Assembly: GCA_964541525.1 (NCBI GenBank)
Contig: CAZIQF010000007.1
Location: 11,533-75,532, forward strand
Source of the DNA: an uncultured Staphylococcaceae bacterium
Lineage (GTDB): Bacteria > Bacillota_I > Bacilli_A > ML615J-28 > CAG-313
Length of the DNA stretch: 64,000 nt
Reading direction: 5' to 3'
Numbering within the stretch: the stretch's first letter is position 1; every line of letters starts with the position of its first letter. The notes beneath the pieces were generated by a model. The model searched no databases. It was not told the origin of the DNA and saw only the letters and a program-made list of their open reading frames with translations. The translations under genes and the position numbers were made by a program. Positions 25,891 through 60,599 of the stretch are shown here, one piece after another.

Positions 25891-25919
25891 TCATTTTAAT
25901 GTAGCTTTTTACATATTAT
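25891..25919 (+). promoter_or_regulatory. sigmaE-type promoter candidate for spoVIF-like gene
   Basis: TCATTTT-14 bp-CATATTAT, matching the B. subtilis sigmaE consensus and spacing. Confidence 0.6.
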
Positions 25920-25935
25920 TATTTGAGGTGAGATA

Positions 25936-26172
25936 ATGAATTTTAATAAAGCATTACAATTTATTGCAGATAATAATATTCAACCAGATGCGGTATTTGC
26001 ATTAGTGGAAAAAGTTAGATCAATGGATTTATCAAATGAAACTAATATTAGAAGTGTCATAAGAGATGTCTCTAAACTTGCAAATAAACCTATTGATGCT
26101 GCTCAAGAAGATCGAATAGTCAGAGAAATTCTAAAAAATGGTGTTAACGATAATTTGTTCAATATGATTTAA
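25936..26172 (+). CDS. spoVIF: Stage VI sporulation protein F family protein
   Basis: 78 aa; pattern ..QPDAVFALVEKV...DLSNETNIRSVIRDVSKLANKPI...EDRIV recognised as SpoVIF-like from memory; RBS GAGGTG. Confidence 0.7.
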   Translation: MNFNKALQFIADNNIQPDAVFALVEKVRSMDLSNETNIRSVIRDVSKLANKPIDAAQEDRIVREILKNGVNDNLFNMI

Positions 26173-26192
26173 GAAAAATAAATACATTTAAC

Positions 26193-26221
26193 TTGAGTTT
26201 TATGTAACAATGTGGTATAAT
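26193..26221 (+). promoter_or_regulatory. sigmaA promoter of yceD-rpmF
   Basis: TTGAGT-17-TATAAT with TG extension. Confidence 0.7.
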
Positions 26222-26244
26222 AATCTAGCAGTATAGGTGAAGTT

Positions 26245-26733
26245 ATGAAATGGTCTTTACAACAATTACATAAAGTTCAATCTTTTCCTTATTATTTTGA
26301 GGAAATACTTGATTTATCGAGCGAAATTGATCCAGTCGAAGATATCTATGCGATAGGTCCAGTAAATATAACTGGTAGAATTTATCGGATTGATGATGAT
26401 AGTTATCGTTTCGTGTATAAGATTAAAGTTAAGCTTGTTCTACAATGCGCTCTAACTTTAGATCCGGTTGATTATGAATTTTGTGAAGATTATGATGAAA
26501 TTTACTCTACTATCCCATCTGATGACTCAATTTTAATTGAAAAAAATACGATTGATACAGCAGTTATGGCTTGGTCAAATATTGTCATTGATAAACCCAT
26601 CAATGTGACTAAAACAGATGCTTATGAAATCTTAAAATCAAGAGGTATTTCATTAGAAGATGAATATGAAGAAGACGGTGATGTGGTAATTTCTTATACG
26701 GATGGACGCCATACTGAAGATGAAGATATTTAG
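26245..26733 (+). CDS. YceD/DUF177 family protein
   Basis: [10 protein letters not shown] motif; directly upstream of rpmF. Confidence 0.8.
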
Positions 26734-26747
26734 AAAGAGGTACTATT

Positions 26748-26954
26748 ATGGGTGCAATTGCTCAACAACGTCGTGTTTCTAAAACTCGTAAATTAAAACG
26801 TCGTACACATTACAAATTAGAAGTTCCAGGTATGGTAGTATGTTCTAATTGTGGTGAACTAAAATTAAGTCACCGTGTATGTCCTGAATGCGGTTACTAT
26901 AACGGCAAACAAGTTAAGGAAATCAAAGTAAAAGAACAAAAAAATAACGAATAA
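26748..26954 (+). CDS. rpmF: 50S ribosomal protein L32
   Basis: [26 protein letters not shown] zinc ribbon. Confidence 0.95.
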
Positions 26955-26994
26955 TTAGGGTTTTAATGATTCGTTTAGGAAGTAATTCCTGTAA

Positions 26995-27021
26995 AAGCGC
27001 ATCAATGGATGCGTTTTTTTT
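26995..27021 (+). terminator. Terminator after rpmF
   Basis: AAGCGCATC-aatg-GATGCGTTT plus long T-tract. Confidence 0.8.
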
Positions 27022-27045
27022 ATTATTTTAATTGGTAGGTATAAT

Positions 27046-27987
27046 ATGGATTCACTTAAACATTATTCAGTATTATTAAATGAGAGTATTGAACTGCTAA
27101 ATATTAAACCTGATGGTATTTATGTTGACTGTACCTTAGGTGGTGGTGGTCACTCCGAAAAAATTTTAGAAAAATTAACGACAGGTCACTTATATGCTTT
27201 CGATCAAGATCTTTATGCGATTGAAAAAGCAAGAGTTCGTTTAGAATCATATCTAGATAAATTAACAATTATCAATAGTAATTTTAGTAATTTAAAAACG
27301 GAATTGAGCAATTTAAATGTTGAACGTATCGATGGTGTTATTTATGACTTAGGTGTATCTAGTTTTCAATTTGATTTACCTGATCGAGGTTTTAGTTATC
27401 GATTAGATGGTCCTCTTGATATGCGAATGAACCAAGATGCCGTACTTTCTGCATATGATGTCGTTAACAATTATACTTTTGATGATTTAAAACGGATTTT
27501 GTATGAATACGGAGAAGAAAAGTTTGCTCCTAATATTGCGAAGATGATTGTTAAGAGTCGGATGGAAAAACCAATCACGACAACTTTTGAACTAGTAGAA
27601 GTTATTAAAAAAGCATTACCGGCAGCCATACTTAGAAAACAGGGTCATCCAGCTAAACAAACTTTTCAAGCAATTAGAATTGAAGTAAACAAAGAATTAG
27701 AAGTGTTAAAAAATAGTTTAAACGATGCTGTATCAATGCTAAATGAGTTAGGTCGTGTCGTGGTCATTACCTTTCATTCATTAGAGGATCGAATTGTTAA
27801 ACAAACCTTTAAGCATTTAACAACGCTTGACCTTCCAAAAGGAATTCCATTTATCCCCGAACATATGAAAATTGAATATAGATTAGTTAATAGTAAAGTT
27901 ATTTTACCAAGTGAAACTGAACTAACCGAAAATAAACGTAGTCATTCGGCTAAATTAAGATGTCTTGAAAAAAATCAAAATGCCTAG
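27046..27987 (+). CDS. rsmH: 16S rRNA m4C1402 methyltransferase
   Basis: HYSVLL, DCTLGGGGH, DLGVSS, LDMRM, ITFHSLEDRIVK. Confidence 0.97.
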   Translation: MDSLKHYSVLLNESIELLNIKPDGIYVDCTLGGGGHSEKILEKLTTGHLYAFDQDLYAIEKARVRLESYLDKLTIINSNFSNLKTELSNLNVERIDGVIYDLGVSSFQFDLPDRGFSYRLDGPLDMRMNQDAVLSAYDVVNNYTFDDLKRILYEYGEEKFAPNIAKMIVKSRMEKPITTTFELVEVIKKALPAAILRKQGHPAKQTFQAIRIEVNKELEVLKNSLNDAVSMLNELGRVVVITFHSLEDRIVKQTFKHLTTLDLPKGIPFIPEHMKIEYRLVNSKVILPSETELTENKRSHSAKLRCLEKNQNA

Positions 27988-28013
27988 AATTTGCAGTTCT
28001 AGACATTTTTTTT
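27977..28013. terminator. Bidirectional terminator between rsmH and aldose epimerase
   Basis: AAAATGCCTAGAA...TTCTAGACATTTT inverted repeat at convergent gene ends. Confidence 0.7.
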
Positions 28014-28890
28014 AAAATAATTTAATTTCATAATTAATAATTTTAGATTTGTTAGGTTCTACCCAAATTAAATCACGTTTTTTTGTAAAATCACCATCAG
28101 TATCAGGACGATCACCACATCCAATCCATGGCTCTAGACAAATAAACGGCGCATCTTTATTCGTAGGAGTCCAAATTCCAAGCATTGGAAATTCAGGGAA
28201 TTTAAACTCAACACCATGATTATTTAGCGGATGTTTTAAAGTAATAGTATTTGTATTGATGTTTTCAAAAATTAACGCATCATAATCATAATCGGAATAT
28301 ACAAGTGGAAGAACTTTTAGATTAGTAAAAGTACGATATCGTTTCATAAAATCGATTGTTCCATCTTGTAAATTAACGACAGGCATTTCATAGGTTCCAA
28401 CTTTGCCAAATTCAATCACATAATCAGTAAATTGTTCACCTTCATGTAGAGGAACTTTAAAAGCTGGATGGAGTCCTAAATTAAATGGCATTGCTGTATC
28501 AGAGTGATTAGTAAATTCAAGATTACTTTTAATTGTATCGTTTACTAGTTCATAAGTAATTTCAATTTCAAAATTAAATGGATATAATTTCAGTGTAGTT
28601 TCGTTACTAGAAGTTATAAAGATAATTTTGTTAGCTTCATGATGTTTTACTGTAAATAAAGTATCTCTTAAAAAACCATGTTTTTGCATTGGATAATTTT
28701 TGCCATTAATATTTGCTGAATCATTTTTAATTGTTCCAATATTTGGCCAAAGAATAGGTGCACTACGTCCCCAATATTTGGGATTACTGTCATGTAAATA
28801 GTCAGTTGATTTAAACTCTATTCTTTTAATCTCTGCTCCTTGATCGGAAATTTCTAATGTTATTAATTCATTTTTAATTGTATAATTCAT
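28012..28890 (-). CDS. Aldose 1-epimerase family protein (LacX-like)
   Basis: WGRSAPILWP, KHGFLRD, GLHPAF, FICLEPW; ATG at 28890 with AAAGGTGG RBS. Confidence 0.85.
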   Translation of the reverse strand: MNYTIKNELITLEISDQGAEIKRIEFKSTDYLHDSNPKYWGRSAPILWPNIGTIKNDSANINGKNYPMQKHGFLRDTLFTVKHHEANKIIFITSSNETTLKLYPFNFEIEITYELVNDTIKSNLEFTNHSDTAMPFNLGLHPAFKVPLHEGEQFTDYVIEFGKVGTYEMPVVNLQDGTIDFMKRYRTFTNLKVLPLVYSDYDYDALIFENINTNTITLKHPLNNHGVEFKFPEFPMLGIWTPTNKDAPFICLEPWIGCGDRPDTDGDFTKKRDLIWVEPNKSKIINYEIKLF

Positions 28891-28976
28891 CTTTACCACC
28901 TTTATGTTTACAGTAAAATTATATCATAATCTAAGAGATATTTCAAGTAAGATTAGTATAATTACCAATAAATATT

Positions 28977-30881
28977 TTATCCAGTATAAATTATAACACT
29001 TCCTCCTTCGATTAATCGTTCACCAGGAGATGGAACTTGGGAAATAACGGTATCGCCACTACCTTCAATGATAAAATTATATTTATTGGTAAATGGAAGT
29101 TTTTTAACATTGAAGCCAATATAATCATCAACTATATAAACATTTTTATCGATATAATACCGAACATCTTCCTTAATACCGCCTTCTACAGGGCCCAAAT
29201 TAAGAAATTTAAAACTTTCTTGAAGTGCTTGTTTGACTATCGGAGCAGCTACTACACCACCATATTGAATTGTATTTTTTGGATTGACAATCGCAAAATA
29301 GATGGCAATTTTAGGATCATTCATTGGAGCAATACCTAGAAATGATAGAATATATTTGCCACTAGCGTATGAGCCATTTTCTGCAATCTGAGCGGTACCT
29401 GTTTTACCACCTACTCGATATCCATCGATATAAGCACCTCTTGCGGTTCCTAATGATGCAACCGATTCTAATGCGTATCTAACAATATTTGATGTTTCTT
29501 CACTAATTACTTGTCGAACTTTAGTTGGTGACTTTTCTAAAAGGATTTGATTATCTTTAGTTATCTTTGAAAGAATATAAGGTGTATTAAGAGTTCCACC
29601 ATTTACTGCCGCACAAGAAGCATTGATTAATTGGATGGCAGTAACTGCATTTCCTTGACCAAAACTAGCAGTTGCCAATTCGACATTACCTATATTTTCT
29701 TCATTAAATAATATTCCACTCGCTTCCCCTAATAAGTCAATACCAGTCTTTTTGCCTAAGCCAAAGTTTCTAATATATTTGAATAGGCGATCTTTTCCTA
29801 ATCTCATTCCAATCGTCATAAAACCTGGATTACAGGAATTTTGAATTACTTGGAGAAAAGTCTGATTTCCATGCCCTCCAGCTTTCCAATCTTTTATTTT
29901 GGTTCCATCTATTATCAAGTAACCAGGATCATTATACATTTCGCCAATTTTAAAAACACCTTCTTCAAGACCAGCAGCATAAGTAATAATTTTTTGAACG
30001 CTTCCTGGTTCATATACTTTCCAAATTGGCAGATTACGATTGTAAACTGACTCGGGATATGCTTGATAATTATCGAGTTCAAAAGTTGGTCTACTAGCCA
30101 TTCCATAAATTTCTGAAGTTTTAGGATTCATTGCAATCATAAACGCTTCATCGGCATTATACTTAGCCATTGCGTTGTTTAGTAATCGTTCTAAGGAAAG
30201 TTGAATGTTTAAATCAATCGTTAAATATAAATCAGCTCCGTTAACGGCACTTTCATAATAACTGGTTAAATCGCTAATCGTGTTACCATGAGCATCGGTA
30301 AAGATTTCTAGACCTCCATTTGTTCCTTTTAAATATGAATCATAGATATACTCTAATCCGGTAATTCCTTGATTATCACTACCAACAATACCGATAATTG
30401 GTGCCATAATCGAACCATAAGGATAACTTCTAATACTATCACTTACAACATAAATTCCAGATAGATTTTCTTTAATGATTTGAACCGCTTGATTTGTTGT
30501 AATATTTTTACCACTTGGTTTAATAATTTCTACTGATACTTTTTTATTTAAATGCTTTAAAATTGTTTCGCTTGATACGTTTAAGATTTTACTTATTTTT
30601 AATGCTGTTTCTTCTTTATTTGTAACTTGTTTTGGAATTGTAACAAGCGTTGGAGCTAAAGAAGAACCAACAATTAAATTTCCGTTTCGATCATAGATAT
30701 TGCCCCTTACACCAGCTACTGGTGCATTTCTTGTCCAAAGCGATAAAGCCAGATCATAGTAATTTTGTCCTTTAATTACTTTTACATAAGCAAGTCTGGA
30801 AAATAAACCAACGAAGGCAATAATTGTAATCAAATAGACAAAAGTTAGACGTTTTAGTTTAGATATTTTATAATATTTCAT
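28977..30881 (-). CDS. spoVD: Class B penicillin-binding protein, SpoVD-like (cortex transpeptidase)
   Basis: N-terminal TM, RGNIYDRNG, YEPGSVQK (SxxK), QNSCNPGF (SxN), GKTGTAQ (KTG), single C-terminal PASTA-like domain, ~634 aa; start at 30881 uses GGTGA RBS. Confidence 0.75.
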   Translation of the reverse strand: MKYYKISKLKRLTFVYLITIIAFVGLFSRLAYVKVIKGQNYYDLALSLWTRNAPVAGVRGNIYDRNGNLIVGSSLAPTLVTIPKQVTNKEETALKISKILNVSSETILKHLNKKVSVEIIKPSGKNITTNQAVQIIKENLSGIYVVSDSIRSYPYGSIMAPIIGIVGSDNQGITGLEYIYDSYLKGTNGGLEIFTDAHGNTISDLTSYYESAVNGADLYLTIDLNIQLSLERLLNNAMAKYNADEAFMIAMNPKTSEIYGMASRPTFELDNYQAYPESVYNRNLPIWKVYEPGSVQKIITYAAGLEEGVFKIGEMYNDPGYLIIDGTKIKDWKAGGHGNQTFLQVIQNSCNPGFMTIGMRLGKDRLFKYIRNFGLGKKTGIDLLGEASGILFNEENIGNVELATASFGQGNAVTAIQLINASCAAVNGGTLNTPYILSKITKDNQILLEKSPTKVRQVISEETSNIVRYALESVASLGTARGAYIDGYRVGGKTGTAQIAENGSYASGKYILSFLGIAPMNDPKIAIYFAIVNPKNTIQYGGVVAAPIVKQALQESFKFLNLGPVEGGIKEDVRYYIDKNVYIVDDYIGFNVKKLPFTNKYNFIIEGSGDTVISQVPSPGERLIEGGSVIIYTG

Positions 30882-30896
30882 CTTTTTCACCATTAT

Positions 30897-30925
30897 TATC
30901 TATGAAAAAAAGACCTGATTTATCA
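30897..30925 (-). promoter_or_regulatory. sigmaE-type promoter candidate for spoVD
   Basis: Minus strand TGATAAA-14 bp-CATAGATA (last -10 position deviates from T). Confidence 0.5.
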
Positions 30926-31091
30926 CAAAAAAATATTTATTGATATGCTTATTTTCTTAGCTATTTAGGAGTGAACACATTAATTTTATATATCGTCAGA
31001 TAACAAATTTTTATTGGTGGAAAGTTTTATTAAAAATGCAAAAGGCTAAAATAGTTTAGATATTTTAGTCTTTTTTGTTGGATTAATGGTT

Positions 31092-31120
31092 GTATTTATT
31101 TGCTTTTTAATTCATAAAAT
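31092..31120 (+). promoter_or_regulatory. sigmaE-type promoter candidate for murE-mraY-murD
   Basis: GTATTTA-14 bp-CATAAAAT, 22 nt upstream of the ATG at 31143. Confidence 0.5.
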
Positions 31121-31142
31121 TAATTATAAAGGAGTCCCCCAT

Positions 31143-32552
31143 ATGAAAAATTACGAATTATTGGAAAAATCTAAAATTAAAACAACAATTAATTATCTTC
31201 ATGAAGTATCTAAAGTTACGATTGATTCAAGAAAGGTTAAAGAAGGTGCTGTTTATTTGTGTGAGGATTTACAGTATTTAGAAGAAGCGATTTTAAAAGG
31301 AGCTAAAACGATTATTACATCTTATGAAATTTTTAATTTCAATAATCACAATGTTAATATAATTAAAGTTAATAATCTTAGAAGTACTTATGCTTTATTA
31401 CTTAAAATATTTTATGAAAACTTTAAATTTCCATATTTAATCGGTGTTACAGGTACTTGTGGTAAAACGACAGTTACAACTCTGCTTTATCGCTCACTGA
31501 AACTTGATCATGATGTAGTCCTTATTTCTTCAAATGGTATTTATCAATCCTACCAGGGAAAAGAATTATATGTTTCTACAACTAATACTACTCCTAGCTT
31601 AGAAGTTATCTATGATAGCATGTTTGGGAATAATTATCAATATGCAATAATTGAAGTAAGTAGTCAAGGCATTGATAATGGACGTATTTTAGGACTAGAA
31701 TTTGATACAGCCGTTTTCTTAAATTTAAGTCATGAACATTTAGACCATCATTTAAATCTACAAAATTATTTTAAAAGTAAACTACAATTATTTTCCCAAC
31801 TTAAAGCGGACGGTTTCTGCATTGTAAATCAAAATTTTGAACAATATCAAGAAATATTTAACAATACAAACGGAAAACCAATATTGTTCAATCCTCAGGA
31901 ATTACAATTAATATCAAGAAATCTAAAAACGCAAACTATCATGATTAATGATGAAAAAGTTGAAACCATTTTTAATGGTGACTATAATATAGAAAATATT
32001 ATGGCCGTTGTTACTATCTTAAAAATGCTTAAACAGAATGTAAATAATTTAATTATAACGCTTAAATCAAAAGCAGAAATTGATGGTAGACTCAATATAT
32101 TAGAGGAGCATAACCGAATTTTTGTTGTTGATTATGCTCATACACCAGTTGAAACCTTTAGTTTATTATCTCATCTTGTTAAGTATAAAAAGAAACGCTT
32201 AATTACGGTGATTGGTTGTGGTGGTAATCGTGATCAAAGTAAAAGACAAATCATCAGTAATACCTGTATGAAGTTTTCCGATTTTGTGATTTTTACTGAG
32301 GATAACAATCGTAATGAGCCAAGGATAAAAATTATCAATGATATGTTAAAAGGAGTACATCAAAATCACTACCAAGTAATTTTAAATCGAGTTGCTGCTA
32401 TCAAAAAAGCAATTTCAATCAGTAATGATGATGATATTGTTGTTTTAATCGGTCGAGGAAATGAACAATACTATGATCTATTTCATCAAAAGGTTGTCAC
32501 TGATATGGCCGTTATTAAATTATTTTTAGAAGAGGAACAAGCAAATGAATAG
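31143..32552 (+). CDS. murE: UDP-MurNAc-tripeptide ligase MurE (divergent)
   Basis: GVTGTCGKTT, IEVSSQG, DYAHTP, GCGGNRD, EDNNR; ATG 31143 after AAAGGAG. Confidence 0.85.
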   Translation: MKNYELLEKSKIKTTINYLHEVSKVTIDSRKVKEGAVYLCEDLQYLEEAILKGAKTIITSYEIFNFNNHNVNIIKVNNLRSTYALLLKIFYENFKFPYLIGVTGTCGKTTVTTLLYRSLKLDHDVVLISSNGIYQSYQGKELYVSTTNTTPSLEVIYDSMFGNNYQYAIIEVSSQGIDNGRILGLEFDTAVFLNLSHEHLDHHLNLQNYFKSKLQLFSQLKADGFCIVNQNFEQYQEIFNNTNGKPILFNPQELQLISRNLKTQTIMINDEKVETIFNGDYNIENIMAVVTILKMLKQNVNNLIITLKSKAEIDGRLNILEEHNRIFVVDYAHTPVETFSLLSHLVKYKKKRLITVIGCGGNRDQSKRQIISNTCMKFSDFVIFTEDNNRNEPRIKIINDMLKGVHQNHYQVILNRVAAIKKAISISNDDDIVVLIGRGNEQYYDLFHQKVVTDMAVIKLFLEEEQANE

Positions 32553-33528
32553 TTATTTATTAATTGATGCAATGTTATTTTTAATTTTTGGCATTCTATT
32601 ATTTCTATTAATGTTACCATATTTAAGAAAGCTAAAATTTGGTCAAAATATTCGAAATGAAGGTCCTAGTAAGCACCTTGTAAAGAAAGGTACGCCAACA
32701 ATGGGAGGATTAATTATCCTAATTTGTTGCTTAGTATTTATGAGCTTATTAATGATTGAATTTAAAGATGAACTTAACATTGATCATCGAAAATTTATGT
32801 TATTATTTATTCCAATGTTTGCTTACGGTATTTTAGGATTAATCGATGATATTCTAATTGTCGTAAAGAAAAAAAATGATGGATTAAAACCAAGTGTTAA
32901 GTTTTTAGTTCAATTAATCTTAGCAGCTGGAATTTATTTTGTTTATTTAAGTGTTTTTAACACCAATGAATTAAACTTTTTTGGTGTTTTGGTCGATATA
33001 AAATTTTTCTATGGTTTGTTAATAATTTTTTTACTTGTAGGTGTCACAAACGCAACCAACTTAACCGATGGTATCGATGGTTTACTTGCAGGTTGTGCGA
33101 TTATTTCTTATCTAAGTTTTGGTATCTTGGGCATTTACAAAAATGAATCAAGTGTAATTATCTTTTCTTTTGCAATGTGTATTGCTTTAACAGTATTTTT
33201 ATTTTTTAATTTACCCAAAGCAAGTGTTTTTATGGGAAATGTTGGTTCTCTATTAATCGGAGCTGGCTTAGTTATGGAAAGCATTATTCTTAGAATGGAA
33301 CTATTATTGTTTTTTATCGGTTTTGTTTATCTATTAGAAACGATTTCGGTAATTGTTCAAGTCTGGTTTTTTAAGAAGACCAAAGGTGAAAGACTATTTA
33401 AAATGTCACCTTTTCATCACCATTTAGAATTAAATGGATTCAAAGAAATCGAAATTGATATTATGCTGTATGGCTTACAGGTTGTTATGTGTGCCATCGG
33501 TATTTTAATCGGAATGTTGGTGTTTTAA
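32545..33528 (+). CDS. mraY: Phospho-MurNAc-pentapeptide transferase
   Basis: KKGTPTMGG, DD motif, NATNLTDGIDGL, FMGNVGS, FKMSPFHHHLE. Confidence 0.92.
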   Translation: MNSYLLIDAMLFLIFGILLFLLMLPYLRKLKFGQNIRNEGPSKHLVKKGTPTMGGLIILICCLVFMSLLMIEFKDELNIDHRKFMLLFIPMFAYGILGLIDDILIVVKKKNDGLKPSVKFLVQLILAAGIYFVYLSVFNTNELNFFGVLVDIKFFYGLLIIFLLVGVTNATNLTDGIDGLLAGCAIISYLSFGILGIYKNESSVIIFSFAMCIALTVFLFFNLPKASVFMGNVGSLLIGAGLVMESIILRMELLLFFIGFVYLLETISVIVQVWFFKKTKGERLFKMSPFHHHLELNGFKEIEIDIMLYGLQVVMCAIGILIGMLVF

Positions 33529-34751
33529 TGAAGGAATATTTATTATATGGAATGGGAAAATCAAATCTAGCGGTAAAAAAGTATTTTGATCAGCAAAGAA
33601 TTAAATATACAATTTACTTGGATACCATGGATTTAAACAAAGTTAAAATATCAAAAGATTTAGTGGTAATTAAAAGTCCGGGAATTAAAAGCGATACTAA
33701 ACTAATGCAGTTACTAATCGATCAACAAATTGCAATTTTAACCGACATCGGTCTTTTTTATCAATTGTTCAAAGATGTTTTCTATATTGGTATTACCGGA
33801 ACACTCGGTAAAACGACTACAACTTTACTTTGTCATCATTTATTAAAAGCGGATTTAAAAGACATCGAAATGGCTGGTAATATTGGTATTCCAATTTTTG
33901 AATATGCATTTAAACCACCTAAATATTTAATTGTTGAATTATCCAGCTTTGAACTCGAATATTGTGGTCATTTTAAACCGAATATTATGTTATTTCTTAA
34001 TTGCTATGCCCATCATCTGAACCATCATCAAAATTTTAAAGCTTATTTACAAGCAAAAATGCAACCGATTAAAAATATGGATCAAAACGATCTATTAATC
34101 GTTAATCAAGAATTGGAAACATATTTTAATTCAGCTTTATTACTACCTAAAGTCATATTTTATGCGAAAAGCGATGTATTGAAAGTTAAGATACCACAAA
34201 ATCAATTCTTTAATTATGATTATAATCTTGATAATTTTCATGGGTTAATTCCGATTTTAAATTTTTTCAAAATAAATCAGGATCATATATTCAATCGCTT
34301 GTGTACTTTTAATCCACCTACATATCGGATGGAAACTATTTATCAGACTGATCAATTAATCATCATCAATGACTCTAAATCAACCTGTTTGAAAGCGACT
34401 ATTGAAGCGATCAAATCTTTAAATAAAAACTATTCTTCATTTAATTTAACTTTAATTATGGGAGGAAAAACTGATTTAGATGAGTTGATAATTTTTAAAC
34501 CTGAATTGAAATCTTTAATCAATAATTTACAATGTTATTATTATGGTGAAAATAAGGATTTACTAAATCAAATTAGTCCGGGTATTGTTAGAAAAACATT
34601 AGAAGAAGTAATCGAAATAATTGATGTTGATTCTAAAAAACAAGTAATTTTATTTTCACCTGGAGCTCAAAGTTTAGATCAATTTGGTTCATTTATCATT
34701 AGGGGCAACACCTTTAATACTTTGATGCTGAAAAAAATAAAACATTTATAA
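33528..34751 (+). CDS. murD: UDP-MurNAc-L-Ala--D-Glu ligase MurD (divergent)
   Basis: KSPGI, GITGTLGKTT, GNIGIP, ELSSFEL, NDSKST, LFSPGAQSLDQF; ATG overlaps mraY stop (TAATG). Confidence 0.85.
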   Translation: MKEYLLYGMGKSNLAVKKYFDQQRIKYTIYLDTMDLNKVKISKDLVVIKSPGIKSDTKLMQLLIDQQIAILTDIGLFYQLFKDVFYIGITGTLGKTTTTLLCHHLLKADLKDIEMAGNIGIPIFEYAFKPPKYLIVELSSFELEYCGHFKPNIMLFLNCYAHHLNHHQNFKAYLQAKMQPIKNMDQNDLLIVNQELETYFNSALLLPKVIFYAKSDVLKVKIPQNQFFNYDYNLDNFHGLIPILNFFKINQDHIFNRLCTFNPPTYRMETIYQTDQLIIINDSKSTCLKATIEAIKSLNKNYSSFNLTLIMGGKTDLDELIIFKPELKSLINNLQCYYYGENKDLLNQISPGIVRKTLEEVIEIIDVDSKKQVILFSPGAQSLDQFGSFIIRGNTFNTLMLKKIKHL

Positions 34752-40909: not shown

Positions 40910-41590
40910 ATGATTTTAAAAGAAATGCCGTTAACTGAGCAACCTAGAGAAAAATTATTATCAATTGGTAGTGATAAACTATCTAATATTGAACTGCTGG
41001 CTATCCTACTTCGAACCGGAACAAAGGATGCTAATGTACTTAAAGTCGCAGAAGAAGTTATTTATTTGTTAGAAGATATTTCTGATTTGACAACACTTAC
41101 AATTCAAGAACTGATAGATATTAAAGGAATCGGTTTATCGAAAGCTATTACCATTTTAGCAGCTGTTGAACTAGGAAAAAGAATCGTCGAAAATAAGCAA
41201 AAAAACTTAAGTTTTTCTACGCCTGAAGCGATCTTTGAGTATTTTTACCCACGAATGGTAAATCTAAAACAAGAAACTTTATACGGAATCTACTTAGACG
41301 TTAGAGGTAAGGTAATATCGATTAAGCATCTGACAACAGGTACGATAACATCAACACTAATTGATCCAAAATTAATTTTCAAATGGGCTTATAAACTTTC
41401 TGCATCGAATATTATACTAGTTCACAATCATCCAAGTAAAGACTCCACCCCATCGCTTGCTGACATTAAAATTACAGCAGAATTAATCAAGCAATCAAGG
41501 GTAATTCAAATCGAAATTATTGATCATATTATTATCGGTGATGATTTCTTCAGTATGAAGCGAAGTATCAAAAATTATAAATTGTTCTAA
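40910..41590 (+). CDS. radC: RadC family JAB-domain protein
   Basis: PREKL, ELLAILLRTG, HNHPS...D, IDHIIIG. Confidence 0.93.
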   Translation: MILKEMPLTEQPREKLLSIGSDKLSNIELLAILLRTGTKDANVLKVAEEVIYLLEDISDLTTLTIQELIDIKGIGLSKAITILAAVELGKRIVENKQKNLSFSTPEAIFEYFYPRMVNLKQETLYGIYLDVRGKVISIKHLTTGTITSTLIDPKLIFKWAYKLSASNIILVHNHPSKDSTPSLADIKITAELIKQSRVIQIEIIDHIIIGDDFFSMKRSIKNYKLF

Positions 41591-41613
41591 ACATTAGTTA
41601 AATTTCATAAAAT
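41585..41613 (+). promoter_or_regulatory. sigmaE-type promoter candidate for spoIVFA/B-like genes
   Basis: TTCTAAA-14 bp-CATAAAAT; an overlapping TATAAT (41613-41618) lies too close to the ATG to leave room for the RBS. Confidence 0.55.
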
Positions 41614-41627
41614 ATAATGGTGATAAA

Positions 41628-42209
41628 ATGAATAATGCAAGAACAAGAAGAATGCTAAGAGAACGAAAAAAGCATAAAAAGAAACGATATAAATTAATTG
41701 ATCGACTTTTTTATCAAATTTTTTTTAGTTCACTTTGTTTATTGATTTTATCATATGCAGCAACGATTAATTTATCTCTACACCAAGAGATTACATCAAA
41801 CTTTAACTTTTTAAAATTAACTAAAACAATTGATAATCTTTTTGCCACTAATATTTTCAATCAAGGTGAAGTGTGTGTTTATTCACAAACTTTTTATGAA
41901 AGTGTAGAATTTAGAAATGACATTAATTACATCAGCAACAGCAGTTTTTCGGGAGTTGAAACATTAGTAGATGGTTTAGTTATTAATATCAAGAAAGAAA
42001 ACAATTTATATAATGTAACTATTCAAGCTAGCGATGACACAATTTATTGTTATCAAGGATTAGAACAAATTGATGTTAGAATTTATCAATACGTTAACGC
42101 AAAAGATGTAATCGGCAAAAGTTGTTACATCAGTGATCACTATGAATTTAAGTTATTAATCATTAAAGATGGTAAGTATTTAGATTATTATGAAAATGCC
42201 GAAGATTAG
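41628..42209 (+). CDS. spoIVFA: SpoIVFA-like membrane protein with degenerate M23/LytM domain
   Basis: Basic N-terminus, one TM, M23-like DGLVINI...VTIQ...YQGLEQIDV...DVIG lacking metal ligands; radC...spoIVFB...rplU synteny. Confidence 0.65.
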   Translation: MNNARTRRMLRERKKHKKKRYKLIDRLFYQIFFSSLCLLILSYAATINLSLHQEITSNFNFLKLTKTIDNLFATNIFNQGEVCVYSQTFYESVEFRNDINYISNSSFSGVETLVDGLVINIKKENNLYNVTIQASDDTIYCYQGLEQIDVRIYQYVNAKDVIGKSCYISDHYEFKLLIIKDGKYLDYYENAED

Positions 42210-42792
42210 AGTTCACTATTCAATTTTCTTTTTGGTTTTAATTAGTTTATTTACAGATAATTTATTTAAAATTCTTGTAATTCTTTTATGTATTATTATC
42301 CATGAATTTGCCCATTTCATCGCTTTATCCTATTATAAAAAACAACTGGTTAGTATTGAAATATCGTTAATCGGGGGCATGATGAATGCTGATAAAGAAG
42401 GCTTATCACTAAAAGCCAAATTAATTGTTAATCTATCAGGGGTTTTTGCCAATTTATTAATTATAATTGGTTTACAAATCTTTAATTTTAATCAACCATT
42501 TTTAATTAGTTATAACTTGCTTATGATTATTTTTAACTTAATTCCGATTATTCCCCTAGATGGATATCAAGTTTTAAATGATATTTTATTAAGTGTTTAT
42601 GAAGAAGAATTTACCTTTGTTATTATTAAATCCATTGATATTATCTGTTTAATTATTTTAGGTATTATTTTGCTGTGGCTAAAAATTTATGGTTTATTCT
42701 TTATTTGGTTATTTCTTATATACAAATTGTATATGTATAATTTAGATGACAAAAAATTAAAAAAATACTTTTTACTTTATCGTAATACTTAA
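42190..42792 (+). CDS. spoIVFB: M50 intramembrane metalloprotease, SpoIVFB-like, no CBS domain
   Basis: IHEFAH (HExxH) and FNLIPIIPLDG (NxxPxxxxDG); overlaps spoIVFA-like gene. Confidence 0.75.
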   Translation: MKMPKIRVHYSIFFLVLISLFTDNLFKILVILLCIIIHEFAHFIALSYYKKQLVSIEISLIGGMMNADKEGLSLKAKLIVNLSGVFANLLIIIGLQIFNFNQPFLISYNLLMIIFNLIPIIPLDGYQVLNDILLSVYEEEFTFVIIKSIDIICLIILGIILLWLKIYGLFFIWLFLIYKLYMYNLDDKKLKKYFLLYRNT

Positions 42793-51725: not shown

Positions 51726-51733
51726 TAAAATCT

Positions 51734-51763
51734 AAATCCTAAAGTAATATTTAGGATTTTTTT
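51734..51763 (+). terminator. Terminator after obg
   Basis: AAATCCTAAA-gtaata-TTTAGGATTT plus T-tract. Confidence 0.7.
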
Positions 51764-51892
51764 AATGAAAAATAGTATAATACTATTGCACGATACTTTT
51801 ATAGATTGTAGCTTATTAAAATCTTAATTGACTTTAATAAAAATCATATTAAATTTATTTAAATGATATTTTAAAGAAAGAGGAAATTAAAA

Positions 51893-52513
51893 ATGAAAAG
51901 AAAAAAACAAATTTATGAAATGACATTACTTGCCATTTTGACAGGACTAATTGTTTTAATGTCCTTTACACCGATTGGTTACATTAAAACTGCTGGTCTA
52001 GAAATTACCTTACTAGTTATTCCTGTAGTTATTGGTGGAATTACTTTAGGAATTAAGGGTGGAACCTTCTTAGGGTTTGTATTTGGGATTACCAGTTATT
52101 TACAATGTATTTTAGGATTTAGTGTTTTTGGAGCTACTTTAAACAGTATTAATCCCTTTTTAACAATTATTGTTTGTATTGTTCCGAGAACTTTAATGGG
52201 ATTTTTAGTTGGTTTAATTTATCAAACCTTATCTAAGCTAATAAAAAAAGAAATTATTTCGAATCTAATTACTAGCATTTCTGGTGCTTTACTAAATACG
52301 GTTTTATTTATGAGCCTTTTATGTCTATGTTTTTATCAAACAGATTATATTCAAGGATTTAAAGCGACTTTAGGAGCTAACAATGTTATTACTTTTATTC
52401 TTTTATTCGTAGGGATAAATGGATTAATTGAATTATTATTAAATGTCATTGTTGGTTCAACTATTAGTAAGACATTATTAATCATCAATAATAAATATGA
52501 AAAACGAGGTTAA
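51893..52513 (+). CDS. ECF transporter S component (pantothenate-type)
   Basis: Six TM; FTPIGYI, IPVVIGGI.LG, VPRTLMG, LNTVLF. Confidence 0.75.
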   Translation: MKRKKQIYEMTLLAILTGLIVLMSFTPIGYIKTAGLEITLLVIPVVIGGITLGIKGGTFLGFVFGITSYLQCILGFSVFGATLNSINPFLTIIVCIVPRTLMGFLVGLIYQTLSKLIKKEIISNLITSISGALLNTVLFMSLLCLCFYQTDYIQGFKATLGANNVITFILLFVGINGLIELLLNVIVGSTISKTLLIINNKYEKRG

Positions 52514-52671
52514 ACTCGTTTTTATTTTTATATACCATTAAACCCTTCTGAGAGCGTTTGAAATTCAAAAAATGAATAAATATCAATCTCATTTGATATA
52601 ATTTCGCAAATTTTTATCATTTTTGGATAAAATATGATATAATTGTAACAAAGAATTAACGAGGTATAAAA

Positions 52672-57110: not shown

Positions 57111-58018
57111 TGCAAAAAGTAGTTATAATTACTGGACCAACTGCGGTGGGTAAAACTAAATGTTCTTTAGCAATTGCAAAACATTTTAATACTGAGCTAA
57201 TTAATGGAGATGCTTATCAAGTTTATCAAAAAATGAATATCGGCACTGCTAAACCGAGTTTAGAGGAATTGAGTTTGATAAAACATCATCTAATTGATTT
57301 CATCGCTCCAGATGAGACTTTTAGTGTGGCTGATTATCAAAAAAAGGTTAGACAAATTTTAGATGAGTTTAAAAATAAAGCAATGATACCAATTATTGTC
57401 GGTGGAAGTGGTTTATATTTAGAAAGTGTCATTTGTGATTATACTTTTAGTGGCAACAAGCGTGACGATTCATTTGAACAACAATATAGCGAATATGACA
57501 ATCAATCATTATATTCGTTATTACAAAAAAACAACCCTAATCTTGCAGTAAATATTCATCCAAACAATCGAAAACGCGTATTAAGAGCCTTAGAACTAAC
57601 AAATAGTAATAATACCAAAGGCATAAATAAGAAAACAATGCTGTATGATGCATTAGTAATCTTCCTAAATGATGATCGTGAAAGACTTTATACCCGGATT
57701 AATAATCGCGTTGATAAAATGGTTGAACAAGGATTAATAGAAGAAGTAAAAAGTTTATATCCAGATAAACTAAGTTTGACTGCAAAAGCAGCAATTGGTT
57801 ATAAAGAATTATTTTCCTATTTTGATGGTGAAATAACACTAGATGAAGCTATTGCAAAAATCAAGCAAGCATCGCGAAATTATGCCAAAAGACAACTAAC
57901 TTGGTTTAGAAATAAAGAATATGTTAAAATTGTTGATATTGATGACTCTAACTTTGAAAATACAATTGAAAAAGTCCAAACTTTAATTAATGATTTTCTA
58001 TATAAACAAATAAACTAA
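57110..58018 (+). CDS. miaA: tRNA dimethylallyltransferase
   Basis: GPTAVGKT, IGTAKP, VGGSGLY, AIGYKE, YAKRQLTWF. Confidence 0.97.
   Translation: MQKVVIITGPTAVGKTKCSLAIAKHFNTELINGDAYQVYQKMNIGTAKPSLEELSLIKHHLIDFIAPDETFSVADYQKKVRQILDEFKNKAMIPIIVGGSGLYLESVICDYTFSGNKRDDSFEQQYSEYDNQSLYSLLQKNNPNLAVNIHPNNRKRVLRALELTNSNNTKGINKKTMLYDALVIFLNDDRERLYTRINNRVDKMVEQGLIEEVKSLYPDKLSLTAKAAIGYKELFSYFDGEITLDEAIAKIKQASRNYAKRQLTWFRNKEYVKIVDIDDSNFENTIEKVQTLINDFLYKQIN
57887..57996 (+). repeat. Direct repeat copy 1 (miaA 3' end)
   Basis: 110 bp, 6 mismatches versus 58430-58539. Confidence 0.95.
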
Positions 58019-58429
58019 TGCCCCGATGATCAAATAGTTCGATTTTCGGGGTTTTTTTGACTTTTTAAGCACATTTATAAAAAATAAAGCTTTTTCAATT
58101 TGGACCTCATCACTTTGTACTTAGAAGTGTGTCTGAAATACTAACACAATTCTCAATTATATAAGTGTGTTTGATAAAGGAAGAATAATTAAATTTGTAC
58201 TTATTGTTGCACTTTAGATTGCAGTACCTATTTTAGAAGAATGGGTTAAATCACAAATATAAAAAACGCCTCAATTAAGAGACGTTAATATTAGAAATCT
58301 AAAATATTGTCATTAAAAAAGATTGAAAACGCAATGGGTTTTAAGGGTTTACCCACAAAACACTCATTCTAAAAGTAATTAAATAATAGTCTAATACATA
58401 TTATATTCATTTTAAATACAAAACATGTA
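57997..58429. mobile_element. Putative residual scar of an element integrated into the miaA 3' end
   Basis: 433 bp without an intact ORF, bracketed by the miaA-end direct repeats. Confidence 0.5.
58021..58058 (+). terminator. Terminator after miaA
   Basis: CCCCGA...TCGGGG plus T7. Confidence 0.7.
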
Positions 58430-58539
58430 AAAAGACAACTAATTTGGTTTATAAATAAAGAATATGTTAAAATTGTTGATATTGATGCCTCTAACTTTGA
58501 AAATACAAGTGAAAAAGTCAAAGCTTTAATTAATGATTT
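58430..58539 (+). repeat. Direct repeat copy 2 (orphan miaA 3' fragment)
   Basis: Translates KRQLIWFINKEYVKIVDIDASNFENTSEKVKALINDF, nearly identical to the MiaA C-terminus. Confidence 0.95.
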
Positions 58540-58544
58540 CTTAA

Positions 58545-58570
58545 AAGTCCTAGTTTATAGGGCTTTTTTT
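58545..58570 (+). terminator. Terminator after the duplicated miaA end
   Basis: AAGTCCTA-gttta-TAGGGCTT plus T-tract. Confidence 0.7.
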
Positions 58571-58574
58571 ATAT

Positions 58575-58603
58575 GAATAATCACATTAAATTTTGAATAT
58601 ATT
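58575..58603 (+). promoter_or_regulatory. sigmaE-type promoter candidate for dacB-spmAB
   Basis: GAATAAT-14 bp-AATATATT (first -10 base deviates from C). Confidence 0.5.
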
Positions 58604-58620
58604 ATGATAGGTGAATTATT

Positions 58621-59460
58621 GTGAAACGAACTTTTATTATTTATCTATTAATCATAACCTTCGTTTTTATGGTCGGTTTTTCAACTAGGCCTAAAGATAC
58701 ATTAGCATCATCAATTCCATATCCTGATTATCCTGCAGAGGCGATGATAGCATTATCTTTAAATGATAATGAAGTTTTTTACCAAAAAAATATGCACAAG
58801 GTAATGTTACCTGCCTCATTAACTAAAGTCCTTACGGCAATTCTATCGATTAATCTCTATCAACTTGATGATTATGTAATAATCACAAATGAAATGGTTA
58901 ATGTTGAAGGATCAAGAGTATATTTAGAAGTAGGTGACATAATTAGTGTAAAAGATTTATTATATGGTTTAATGCTATGTAGTGGTAATGATTGTGCAAT
59001 GGCTTTAGGATTACATTATAGTGGTAATTTAAACGATTTTGTAATCTTAATGAATGAATTAACTACCAAAATTGGAATGAAAAATTCTACTTTCAATAAT
59101 CCGCATGGATTAGATACTACAACTGAAAATTATACAACTGCCTATGATTTAGCTATTTTATTTAGTTATGCGATGAAAAATGAAACATTTAGAATGATTA
59201 CAGAAACTAAAAATTATCATAGTGAAATTTATAGCGAAAAAAATATTTATTTCAAAAATAAACATCGACTGATTCATTCTTTAACTAATGTTATTGGTGG
59301 CAAAACTGGTTATACCAAAAAAGCCAAAAGAACCTTAATTACTGGTTTTAAAGAAGAAGATCAAGAAATTGTTATTGTTACTTTGAATGCTAGTTCAGAT
59401 TGGTTTATTCATCAAGATTTAAGTGAAAGAATTTTTTCTAATTTAGAAGTCGGTTTTTAG
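58621..59460 (+). CDS. dacB: D-Ala-D-Ala carboxypeptidase (S11), DacB-like, no C-terminal PBP5 domain
   Basis: Signal/TM segment, PASLTK (SxxK), SGND (SxN), NPHGLD, GKTGYT; upstream of spmAB. Confidence 0.8.
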   Translation: MKRTFIIYLLIITFVFMVGFSTRPKDTLASSIPYPDYPAEAMIALSLNDNEVFYQKNMHKVMLPASLTKVLTAILSINLYQLDDYVIITNEMVNVEGSRVYLEVGDIISVKDLLYGLMLCSGNDCAMALGLHYSGNLNDFVILMNELTTKIGMKNSTFNNPHGLDTTTENYTTAYDLAILFSYAMKNETFRMITETKNYHSEIYSEKNIYFKNKHRLIHSLTNVIGGKTGYTKKAKRTLITGFKEEDQEIVIVTLNASSDWFIHQDLSERIFSNLEVGF

Positions 59461-59526
59461 AGGATGAATGAATAAAAGTTCAAGTTTTTATTTTTCAATC
59501 GCTTAAAAAAGGGGGATGAAAATAAT

Positions 59527-60108
59527 ATGAATAAAATTTGGTGTTTTTTGTTAATTTTTAGCATTTTGATTAGCATAGTAACAGGGAACATTTATAATCT
59601 AGCTGATATTATGATTGATTCATCAATGAAGGCTTGGAATGTATTTTTACAAGTAGGAATTTTAATTTTATTTTGGGGTGGAATTTTCGAAATTGCAAAT
59701 AATTCAGGACTGGTAAAAATTATTTCCAACAAACTTAAAAAACCATTACATTTAATCTTCAAAGAAATTCCCACTGATTCAAAGGCTTATGAATTTATTT
59801 GTTCAAATATCGTAGCTAACCTCTTAGGTCTAGGAAGTGCAGCTACCCCAATGGGATTAAAAGCCTTTAGAGAAATGCAAAAATTATCAGAAGATCAAAC
59901 TATCCCAACTAGATCTATGATAACATTGATTGCAATTAACTGTAGTTCAATCACAATTGTGCCAACAACAATTATCAGTATGCGTAATTTAAATGGCGGA
60001 ACAACTCCACCATTTGTTATTCTATTAATGATGCTATCTACAATAATTTCGACGATTATTGCATTGTTGTTGGATAGATTATTTTATCATCTAAGTAAAT
60101 TAAAATGA
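59527..60108 (+). CDS. spmA: Spore maturation protein A
   Basis: MNKIW, FWGG, ANLLGLGSAATPMGLKA..EMQK, INCSSITIVPTT. Confidence 0.9.
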   Translation: MNKIWCFLLIFSILISIVTGNIYNLADIMIDSSMKAWNVFLQVGILILFWGGIFEIANNSGLVKIISNKLKKPLHLIFKEIPTDSKAYEFICSNIVANLLGLGSAATPMGLKAFREMQKLSEDQTIPTRSMITLIAINCSSITIVPTTIISMRNLNGGTTPPFVILLMMLSTIISTIIALLLDRLFYHLSKLK

Positions 60109-60599
60109 TTATCATCGTTTTTTATATTTTTTTCATTATTATTTTTGGTATGATTAAAAAAGTAAATTGTTATGAATCCTTTAAATCCGGGGTTAAAAGT
60201 AATTTTAGTATACTTCTAGATATTTTTCCTAATTTAATGGCTTTAGTTCTAGTCGTTGAAGTTTTTAAAAATTCTGGTTTTATTGAATTAATTAATAATT
60301 ATTTAAGTTTTAATCAATTGCCTATCACTCTTTTTATTCAAATATTTTTAAAACCACTATCTTCATCTAGCTCTTTAATTTTTATGCTAGACATTTGGAA
60401 TGAATTTGGTGTAGATAGTAAGGTTGGATTTCTCGCATCAATTTTACAAGGTTGTAGTGATACTACGCTTTATATCATTACTATGTATTTTGCTTCGGTA
60501 AAAATATCTAAAACTAAATATGCACTACCAGTAGGTCTACTAACTGATCTTTTGACTTTTATTATCGTAATTATAATTTATCTGATTTTCTTTAATTAA
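60105..60599 (+). CDS. spmB: Spore maturation protein B
   Basis: YESFKSG, KPLSSS, GCSDTTLYIITMYFASV. Confidence 0.88.
   Translation: MIIIVFYIFFIIIFGMIKKVNCYESFKSGVKSNFSILLDIFPNLMALVLVVEVFKNSGFIELINNYLSFNQLPITLFIQIFLKPLSSSSSLIFMLDIWNEFGVDSKVGFLASILQGCSDTTLYIITMYFASVKISKTKYALPVGLLTDLLTFIIVIIIYLIFFN

Follow-up and report, generated by a model that had tools for sequence, protein, structure and literature searches.

A putative sigmaE-type mother-cell promoter class that probably includes the murE-mraY-murD operon in an uncultured member of the bacterial order ML615J-28

Two gene clusters of Bacillus subtilis provide the reference for the region described here: the division and cell wall (dcw) cluster, with the order mraZ-rsmH-ftsL-pbpB-spoVD-murE-mraY-murD-spoVE-murG-..., and a second cluster, radC-mreBCD-minCD-spoIVFAB-rplU, in which mreBCD and minCD lie between radC and spoIVFAB. 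The sigmaE promoters of B. subtilis reportedly follow the consensus kmATAww-14-CATAcahT, and cortex precursors are said to build up in this species in a sigmaK-dependent manner. In the analysis that follows, we examined a 64,000-nt stretch of DNA (hereafter the window; assembly GCA_964541525.1, contig CAZIQF010000007.1, forward-strand positions 11,533 to 75,532), whose section of interest, window positions 25,891-60,599, holds counterparts of both clusters, and in which a set of spore genes and the operon murE-mraY-murD probably form a single sigmaE-type mother-cell regulon. Among the orthologues concerned, spoVD, spoIVA, dacB-spmAB and yqfCD are known as sigmaE cortex genes in B. subtilis (PMC517825, Eichenberger et al., 2003/2004). 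The promoters of sigmaE and sigmaK share the same -10 element and differ in the -35 element, which carries ATA for sigmaE and AC for sigmaK (Saujet et al., 2013, PMC3789822).

A mur gene under sporulation control has a precedent in murE of C. difficile, where precursor-synthesis genes (murE and glmS) are placed under a mother-cell sporulation sigma factor (PMC3789822). The operon analyzed here is comparable as far as its promoter type suggests, but C. difficile has a sigmaA promoter besides the sporulation promoter, whereas here the sporulation-type box alone is detectable; moreover, murE, mraY and murD are all covered, they are fused to spoVD in distant relatives, and the lineage is a different one. 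For the orders RFN20, RF39 and ML615J-28, Field et al. (2024, PMC10868615) described reduced peptidoglycan and sporulation gene sets, with approximately 25 sporulation genes and repeated co-loss, and predicted for the order a thin vegetative wall rather than sporulation-linked synthesis. Their survey concerned gene presence (KEGG orthologues) only, without promoters, operons or synteny, and it scored spoIVFB and yqfD as reduced or absent, whereas a 200-aa SpoIVFB-like protein and YqfD are present here. Loss from the Mre/Min cluster has also been described in Staphylococcaceae and Erysipelotrichia, in which mreB, minC and minD are absent (Garcia et al., 2021, PMC8136486); unlike in that pattern, mreC and mreD are gone here as well and the adjacent spoIVFA/B is kept. 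The reduced wall and spore gene sets of the order and the mre/min loss in neighbouring lineages are thus already published, and what differs here is the apparent lack of a sigmaA promoter, the joint coverage of murE, mraY and murD, and the lineage.

The host is an uncultured gut or rumen bacterium of the GTDB order ML615J-28, class Bacilli, beside Acholeplasmatales and Izemoplasmatales, as judged from its closest genomes. Its ValS is 85% identical to those of two metagenome-assembled genomes (MAGs) and 61-74% identical to those of UMGS75, UBA3946 and others, and UMGS75 (f__CAG-313) and UBA3946 (f__CAG-698), which have the same synteny as the window, are both listed under o__ML615J-28 in the supplement of Field, Bowerman and Hugenholtz (2024, PMC10868615). 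The preliminary description of this DNA, made from the window alone, was therefore right in guessing a Mollicutes-related lineage of Bacilli. About 30 related MAGs were collected by genome-collection scans with SpoVD, ValS and MutL, with a fourth scan using FolC of UBA1737, and a flank of 10 kb on each side, from the same organism, was obtained from Logan assemblies via exact-protein look-ups (ENA/Logan contigs of at most 41 kb). In all, ~84 kb of this genome was covered, and the promoter counts given below extend over 83 kb (the window plus the Logan flanks). The window DNA has ~30% G+C, and genes were annotated with NCBIfam and Pfam.

The preliminary description had proposed that five units of the window share a promoter with two blocks and a 14-bp spacer, and all five motif pairs were found exactly as claimed. 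As a class, they hold for spoVIF, murE and spoIVFA, partly for spoVD, and weakly for dacB in this genome. The spoVIF site lies on the forward strand at 25892-25920 (TCATTTT at 25892-25898, CATATTAT at 25913-25920), directly after the gpsA terminator hairpin (25865-25887) and 16 nt upstream of the ATG, and in 5/5 genomes a CATAT(T/A)AT box is found at -24 to -28 within surroundings that have diverged. The murE site, also on the forward strand, occupies 31092-31120 (GTATTTA at 31092-31098, CATAAAAT at 31113-31120), 22 nt upstream of the ATG at 31143; all five genomes with a separate murE upstream region carry a CATAnAnT box (CATAAAAT, CATATACT, CATATAAT, CATAGACT and CATATGAT), and the five spacers have almost nothing in common. 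At spoIVFA, the site (forward strand, 41585-41613; TTCTAAA at 41585-41591, CATAAAAT at 41606-41613) ends 5 nt upstream of GGTGA, its -35 overlaps the radC stop codon, and the orthologous sites read TCATAAA-14-CATACAAT in DUPC and TCATAAA-14-CATAAAAT in UMGS116 and CAG:324. The spoVD site is on the reverse strand at 30925-30897 (TGATAAA at 30925-30919, CATAGATA at 30904-30897), 5 nt upstream of a GGTGA ribosome-binding site; the box ends in A in the window, and a CATA box stands before spoVD in CAKONV, DUPC, CAG:324 and UBA3946. The dacB site (forward strand, 58575-58603) consists of GAATAAT at 58575-58581 and AATATATT at 58596-58603, 6 nt upstream of GGTGA, and its orthologues with CATA include CATACAAT with TCATATT 14 nt upstream (JAZOLP), CATATACT, CATATTAT and CATAGAAT. 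The B. subtilis sigmaE consensus is matched exactly at two of these orthologous sites, dacB of JAZOLP and spoIVFA of DUPC.

The same architecture recurs outside the window, just upstream of rnfC, where the left flank (L179, 3671-9853) encodes spoIVA, hbs, a gerM-like gene (Germane), rpsU, yqfC and yqfD (PF06898). Here the sites are TTATATT-14-CATATCAT for spoIVA, GTATATT-14-CATATGAT for the gerM-like gene and TCATATT-14-CATATGAT for yqfC; a scan of metagenomes with SpoIVA found one close relative, whose promoter lies outside the available sequence, together with distant homologues. A CATAnAnT -10 is thus present at spoVIF, murE, spoIVFA, spoIVA, the gerM-like gene and yqfC. The -35 match to kmATAww is perfect at yqfC (TCATATT) and 5-6/7 elsewhere, which is hard to separate from the AT-rich background, and a CATA-anchored logo gave a weak -35 signal at -21 to -17, [GT][TC][AC]T[AT], with ~0.5 bit per position. 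In the genes concerned (spoIVA, gerM, yqfCD, spoVD, spoIVFAB and dacB-spmAB), in the two blocks with their 14-bp spacer and in the CATA -10, this set resembles the sigmaE regulon of B. subtilis. It differs in that the -35 is degenerate, with T rather than A/C at position 2, that the boxes lie almost on the ribosome-binding site, and that murE-mraY-murD is included without a visible sigmaA promoter. At spoVD, spoIVFA and dacB (30882-30905, 41606-41627 and 58596-58620), the -10 is only 5-6 nt from GGTGA, a geometry kept across the order, so that the mRNAs are predicted to start at or just before the Shine-Dalgarno sequence. The claim of a dispersed mother-cell promoter class of sigmaE type is thus supported as far as promoter sequence can tell, and the class probably extends to spoIVA, the gerM-like gene and yqfCD.

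That these sites exceed chance is established by their position and conservation, not by the match to a consensus. With KMATAWW-N13-15-CATACAHT, the five sites score 12-13/15 versus ~11/15 for any upstream region, which gives no discrimination; CATANNNT-N3-12-GGWG occurs 10 times in the window versus 5.4 +/- 2.3 in shuffles (~2 standard deviations), and a sigma-70 consensus scan of the window yielded 104 sites versus 104.5 in shuffles. Position, by comparison, separates the classes: over the 83 kb, CATAnnn[AT] at -20 to -35 from the start was found at 6/8 sporulation units versus 0/33 other lead genes (Fisher p = 6e-6, or 1e-4 if lepA and orf105, considered below, are counted as hits). Half of the six box-bearing sporulation units (spoIVA, gerM-like and yqfCD) are located outside the window and therefore serve as an out-of-sample test of the preliminary description. 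Their neighbours in the left flank (fic, DUF402, hbs, rce1, ham1, rpsU and rnfC) have no CATA box, and murE, with its box at -30, is the one clearly non-sporulation unit with a box in the 83 kb.

Footprinting, in which CATAnnnT was counted up to ~60 nt from the predicted start throughout the orthologous upstream regions of the ~30 genomes, gave 28/48 regions of the five units versus 9/320 control regions (38 control gene groups). The box was present at spoVIF in 5/5, at murE in 5/5 genomes in which this gene has its own upstream region, at spoIVFA in 8/10, with the DUPC site just outside the counting zone, at spoVD in 4/8, besides the CATAGATA of the window, and at dacB in 5/14. Exceptional counts among the control groups came from ECF-S (energy-coupling factor S component; 6/13) and prp (4/14), the prp matches lying within the rplU coding sequence.

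The murE-mraY-murD operon is located at 31143-34751 on the forward strand (murE 31143-32552, mraY 32545-33528, murD 33489-34751), and its three products score above the NCBIfam cut-offs (MurE TIGR01085, 306 bits; MraY TIGR00445, 234 bits; MurD TIGR01087, 246 bits). MurE has its P-loop, and DNNR replaces the DNPR of diaminopimelate-type enzymes, which is kept in UBA3946 only. On the forward strand at 31040-31076, 16 nt upstream of the murE -35, there is a terminator-like hairpin followed by a U-run (-13.2 kcal/mol, z = -4.0). In the subclade of the window, an esterase (SASA) or leucine-rich repeat (LRR) gene with a terminator is inserted after spoVD; the relatives have a terminator in the same place as the hairpin and the gene is missing in the window, so the hairpin looks like a relic terminator of the gene that separates spoVD from murE in relatives. 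All five genomes of this subclade have murE behind its own CATA promoter-like box. In the distant relatives BRZBF145, UMGS116, CAG:324 and DUPC, murE abuts spoVD, and since a CATA box lies upstream of spoVD in DUPC (where the gene on that side of spoVD is the divergent epimerase) and CAG:324, spoVD-murE-mraY-murD would form a single unit with a CATA box in front in these two at least. Conservation of the box in five diverged genomes supports the earlier claim that murE-mraY-murD is under a sporulation-type promoter, as judged from sequence.

In every genome pair, MurE and MurD evolve faster than the other proteins of the region; their identity to all relatives examined outside their own species is 35-43%, compared with 67-85% for ValS. 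Between RGIG1779 and RGIG9028, for instance, identity is 94% for ValS, 86% for SpoVD, 77% for MraY, 61% for MurD and 57% for MurE. Horizontal replacement as the cause of the low MurE and MurD identity was considered and rejected, because the ranking ValS > SpoVD > MraY > MurD (with MurE ~ MurD) is the same in every pair, close or distant, which points to vertical inheritance with rapid change and not to replacement of the genes.

With regard to missing neighbours, mraZ, ftsL, pbpB, spoVE, murG, mreBCD and minCD had been reported as absent from the window, and they proved to be absent also from the same positions in all relatives, which makes the absence a trait of the clade. Two blocks of synteny are conserved across the order, spoVIF-yceD-rsmH-(epimerase)-spoVD-murE-mraY-murD-...-nadD-valS-folC-radC-spoIVFA-spoIVFB-...-ppdK and miaA-dacB-spmA-spmB-rluB. 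From the dcw cluster, rsmH, spoVD, murE, mraY and murD are retained, and an epimerase gene, a gltD-like gene and nadD occupy the adjoining positions in all relatives. Of the 5' part of this cluster, nothing but rsmH (mraW; 27046-27987, forward strand; TIGR00006, 377 bits) survives: it is preceded by rpmF instead of mraZ, and in place of ftsL and pbpB it is followed by a divergent aldose-1-epimerase-like gene. Downstream of murD, the canonical run spoVE/ftsW-murG-murB-divIB-ftsA-ftsZ is missing as well. In the other cluster, spoIVFA follows directly after radC (40910-41590, forward strand), at the place taken by mreC, mreD, minC and minD in Erysipelotrichales; a Faecalibacillus locus (L031, Erysipelotrichales) reads radC-mreC-?-minC-minD-M23(spoIVFA)-M50(spoIVFB)-rplU. 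The kept genes agree with the B. subtilis clusters in order and orientation (rsmH...spoVD-murE-mraY-murD and valS-folC-radC...spoIVFA-spoIVFB...rplU-prp-rpmA-obg), but mraZ, ftsL, pbpB, spoVE, murG and the mre and min genes are gone throughout the order, and spoVD is inverted in the window, also with respect to its four nearest relatives (L001-L004). The 10-kb Logan flanks contain no sigma factor, SEDS or further mur genes, and a Pfam search of 20 unannotated neighbour genes of relatives found transporters, esterases and AAA proteins, with no peptidoglycan synthase or sigma factor among them.

The spore and wall genes are also lost together. UBA1737 (ValS 76%) lacks spoVIF, epimerase-spoVD-murE-mraY-murD-gltD, spoIVFA/B-LRR and dacB-spmAB-rluB-PAP2, with tight junctions and no remnants, and keeps yceD-rsmH-nadD-valS-folC-radC-ppdK-rplU-prp-rpmA-obg-mutS-mutL-miaA, followed by a 350-aa open reading frame (ORF; window 62356-63408); RGIG3506 likewise has no mur genes before nadD. 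In the loci that could be scored for both, the mur operon and spoIVFA/B were both present in 10 and both absent in 2. This co-occurrence fits a wall synthesis subordinate to sporulation, but because the cortex needs peptidoglycan, co-loss is also expected if the wall was lost first; the same coupling of wall and sporulation was remarked on by Field et al. (2024, PMC10868615). In a MAG named Anaeroplasma bactoclasticum (L100) and an Anaeroplasmatales MAG (L108), miaA-dacB-spmA-spmB shows the same synteny, which agrees with the remark of these authors that many Anaeroplasmataceae genomes contain sporulation and peptidoglycan genes.

The gene identities given in the preliminary description hold up in NCBIfam, Pfam and PDB matches. 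SpoVIF (25936-26172, forward strand, 78 aa) matches PF14069 with 59.8 bits (cut-off 27). The class B penicillin-binding protein (PBP) encoded on the reverse strand at 28977-30881 (634 aa from the ATG at 30881) matches TIGR02214 (spoVD_pbp) with 632.5 bits, below the cut-off of 688, but since the alignment runs from end to end (2-635 of 636) and the best solved relative is SpoVD (7rcz, 384 bits; next match 233), it is called SpoVD-like. Its catalytic motifs are intact (SVQK at 298, SCN at 353, KTG at 497), its identity is 86-98% in pairs with 90-94% for ValS, and if it is the sole class B PBP it may also serve division. The SpoIVFA-like gene (41628-42209, forward strand; Pfam M23, 24 bits, below the cut-off) is directly followed by that of a 200-aa SpoIVFB-like M50 site-2 protease (42190-42792, forward strand; Pfam M50, 37 bits), which is in its ancestral position in the radC...rplU region, as in Faecalibacillus. 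The protease has the motifs HEFAH and NLIPIIPLDG and a membrane domain, and its best PDB match is SpoIVFB (8vjl), over residues 10-195 only of a deposited chain of 314 residues. A C-terminal CBS domain was not found in these 200 aa, and the short form without it is probably the reason why gene-content surveys score spoIVFB as absent in ML615J-28. Genes for a dacB-like D,D-carboxypeptidase, spmA and spmB (58621-60599, forward strand) match D-Ala-D-Ala carboxypeptidase families and Pfam Peptidase_S11 and Gate.

Around these genes, the window begins with rnfCDGEAB, an RpoD-like sigma factor, glyS, dnaG, a second rpoD, plsY (reverse strand), parE, parC, an ABC transporter, a cmk-rpsA fusion, der and gpsA. 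These are followed by spoVIF, yceD, rpmF, rsmH, the aldose-1-epimerase-like gene and the SpoVD-like PBP gene (both reverse strand), murE, mraY, murD, a gltD-like oxidoreductase and nadD, and then by a T-box leader with valS, folC, radC, the SpoIVFA-like and SpoIVFB-like M50 genes, an LRR protein, ppdK, a metallo-beta-lactamase-fold protein, an ORF without assigned function and trhA. The last part contains an L21 leader, rplU, prp, rpmA, obg, the ECF-S component, mutS, mutL, miaA, dacB-like, spmA, spmB, rluB, a PAP2 phosphatase and others. Rfam matches in the window are limited to the L21 leader and the T-box of valS, with none in the long miaA-dacB spacer (58019-58620). Within this spacer, the last ~40 miaA codons recur as a duplicated relic at about 58424-58546 (KRQLIWFINKEYVKIVDIDASNFENTSEKVKALINDFLK...), separated from the true miaA end by ~400 bp of unmatched sequence, and the insertion is missing in relatives. 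The PAP2-family phosphatase gene after rluB (61428-62363) possibly encodes an undecaprenyl-pyrophosphate phosphatase, and the cytidylate kinase is fused with a ribosomal protein S1-like region in one 697-aa ORF (21448-23541), a fusion kept in the relatives with this region.

Housekeeping promoters in this lineage look different. The controls used in the preliminary description (yceD, parE, cmk, ppdK and rplU) do have TTGnnn-17-TAnAAT, often with a TG extension, and across relatives TTGnnn-16..18-TAnnnT was found at the epimerase gene in 6/6, ppdK in 9/11, rluB in 11/12 and yceD in 4/5 genomes, versus spoVD in 0/8 and dacB in 1/14. In the window, no sigmaA-like site scoring at least 9/12 lies upstream of murE, spoVD or spoIVFA, and none of the five murE promoters has a TTG -35 at 16-18 nt. 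With regard to sigma factors, local tblastn over all 186 loci collected found RpoD-like genes only, with no small sigma factor. Two full-length RpoD-like sigma factors, 45% identical and with canonical regions 2.4 and 4.2, are encoded in the window at 5175-6446, after the rnf operon, and at 9819-11009, in the usual dnaG-rpoD place.

We propose that the organism retains a reduced endospore programme, in which the mother-cell genes spoIVA, gerM-like, yqfCD, spoVIF, spoVD and spoIVFA/B, and more weakly dacB-spmAB, would be scattered among housekeeping genes as in B. subtilis and read from one promoter class (-35 [G/T][T/C]AT[A/T][A/T][A/T], 14-bp spacer, -10 CATAnAnT, 14-25 nt before the start codon, no TTG -35). 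The murE-mraY-murD operon would belong to this class, co-transcribed with spoVD in distant members and behind its own terminator-insulated CATA promoter in the subclade of the window. After asymmetric division, a mother-cell holoenzyme of sigmaE/sigmaK type would turn on MurD, MurE and MraY for the synthesis of lipid-linked precursors, and the same switch would turn on SpoVD as transpeptidase of the cortex, DacB as carboxypeptidase, SpmAB, and SpoIVFB as the protease for pro-sigmaK, so that the supply of wall precursors would be wired to sporulation. The motifs, their specific positions and conservation, the synteny and the co-loss are observed; the factor that reads the boxes, the time at which they fire and the vegetative expression that remains are what we infer here, and we lean towards low vegetative expression of the mur operon.

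Several observations weigh against a sigmaE-type regulon with murE-mraY-murD as a member, which we nevertheless consider probable. No sigE, sigK or spo0A gene turned up in the ~84 kb covered; the -35 halves barely stand out from the AT-rich background and carry little information; with the boxes this near the ribosome-binding site, leaders would measure only ~8-18 nt, an unusual geometry; and each CATAnnnT includes a TAnnnT hexamer that sigmaA could possibly use without a -35. The box itself varies: that of spoVD reads AATAAATA, with the C missing, in the three nearest relatives, Phil14 has TATAAT without CATA at murE, the dacB box of the window (AATATATT) has no C and thus no CATA, though its position is homologous, and half of the dacB orthologues read AATATAAT or TATATAAT, again without the C. 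It also occurs elsewhere, since lepA (CATAGTCT at -32) and an unannotated 101-105-aa ORF (L175, 12708-13388, minus strand, ~8 kb right of the window, with CATATAAT 6 nt upstream of GGTGA) carry it as the only other matches in the 83 kb, and the ECF-S gene has CATATACT at -24 to -28 in three relatives (L096, L099 and L100). The ECF-S gene may have joined the sporulation promoter class in a particular lineage; in the window (51893-52513) it has a TTGACT-16-TAAATT site instead of a CATA box. Were the motifs AT-rich noise without promoter function, consensus scores hardly above those of any upstream region, a motif count only ~2 standard deviations above shuffles and sigmaA-like matches at shuffle level would all be expected, but such noise would not account for the positional specificity of 6/8 versus 0/33, the out-of-sample matches at spoIVA, gerM-like and yqfC, or a box kept in diverged intergenic sequence in up to 10 genomes, and we strongly disfavour this explanation as very improbable. 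More plausible, although still distinctly unlikely, is that the boxes have another reader, either a merged sigmaE/K-like factor activated by SpoIVFB or one of the two RpoD paralogues. The -10 element common to sigmaE and sigmaK and the two RpoD-like genes in the window would agree with this, as would the fact that Field et al. (2024, PMC10868615) named spoIIGA only as an additional RF39 gene, which suggests that it is not in the Erysipelotrichales or ML615J-28 set. However, the -35 signal is in the sigmaE register with AT, not AC, the box-bearing genes are orthologues of sigmaE-regulon genes, and reading by an RpoD paralogue was judged unlikely because both paralogues keep canonical recognition regions. 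An assignment to sigmaK, sigmaG or sigmaF was likewise set aside, since positions -19/-18 lack AC and the -35 signal begins at -21, not -23.

Two further explanations concern what happens during growth. According to one, to which we give about an even chance, the cells have a thin vegetative wall, and the mur operon is expressed at a basal level in growth (by sigmaA via TAnnnT or undetected promoters) and boosted in the mother cell; this agrees on the promoter class and differs from the favoured reading only on vegetative expression. It would have a counterpart in C. difficile, where murE and glmS have sigmaK/sigmaA promoters (PMC3789822). A peptidoglycan wall is predicted for CAG-313 and most of CAG-698, and sporulation genes are found in only ~50% of CAG-698 (Field et al., 2024, PMC10868615), which implies that some members have wall genes but no sporulation genes. 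The high conservation of the SpoVD-like PBP and the good -10 hexamers included in CATATAAT and CATAAAAT point in the same direction, but none of the five murE promoters has the TTG -35 seen in the housekeeping promoters of this lineage, the murE promoter lies behind an insulating terminator, to which the window adds a divergent gene, and in four distant genomes the sole upstream promoter is that of spoVD. According to the other, vegetative cells have no wall or almost none, and the pathway as a whole is active in the sporangium only. The sporulation-type promoters standing alone on the mur operon, the disappearance of mreC, mreD, minC, minD, ftsL, pbpB, spoVE and murG from their ancestral positions, the 10 loci with both and 2 with neither of the mur operon and spoIVFA/B, the joint loss of all units in UBA1737, and the fastest evolution in the region, that of MurE and MurD, are all in favour of this. 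Engulfment requires SpoIID, SpoIIM and SpoIIP only if a septal wall is present, which can be counted on the same side. The order is described as having no sortase, teichoic acid pathway or spoIID and few PBPs or lytic enzymes (Field et al., 2024, PMC10868615). Nevertheless, co-loss is expected with a vegetative wall too, the same study predicts a wall and its figures imply members with wall genes but without sporulation genes, a cortex-only pathway has no known precedent in Bacillota, and the conservation of SpoVD is high for a sporulation-only gene, so that we regard this explanation as rather unlikely. We are similarly doubtful about the wider proposal that ML615J-28 is a living intermediate between walled Bacillota and the wall-less Mollicutes, whose peptidoglycan would serve the cortex alone, or possibly the germ cell wall as well, and which would grow wall-less or nearly so and could dispose of the whole pathway at once when sporulation was lost, as in UBA1737.

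The loss of the cell wall in Mollicutes is a long-standing question, and what has been published on these orders is based solely on which genes are present or absent. If the operon is merely boosted during sporulation, the present results would extend the finding on C. difficile murE to a distant lineage, which is of modest interest. If, however, the last precursor operon is wired to a mother-cell sigma factor and discarded together with the sporulation genes, this would offer a concrete route to wall loss, in which wall synthesis first becomes a sporulation function and is later lost along with sporulation. In that case, growth of these common gut and rumen bacteria would tolerate beta-lactams, whereas spore formation, and hence transmission, would not.

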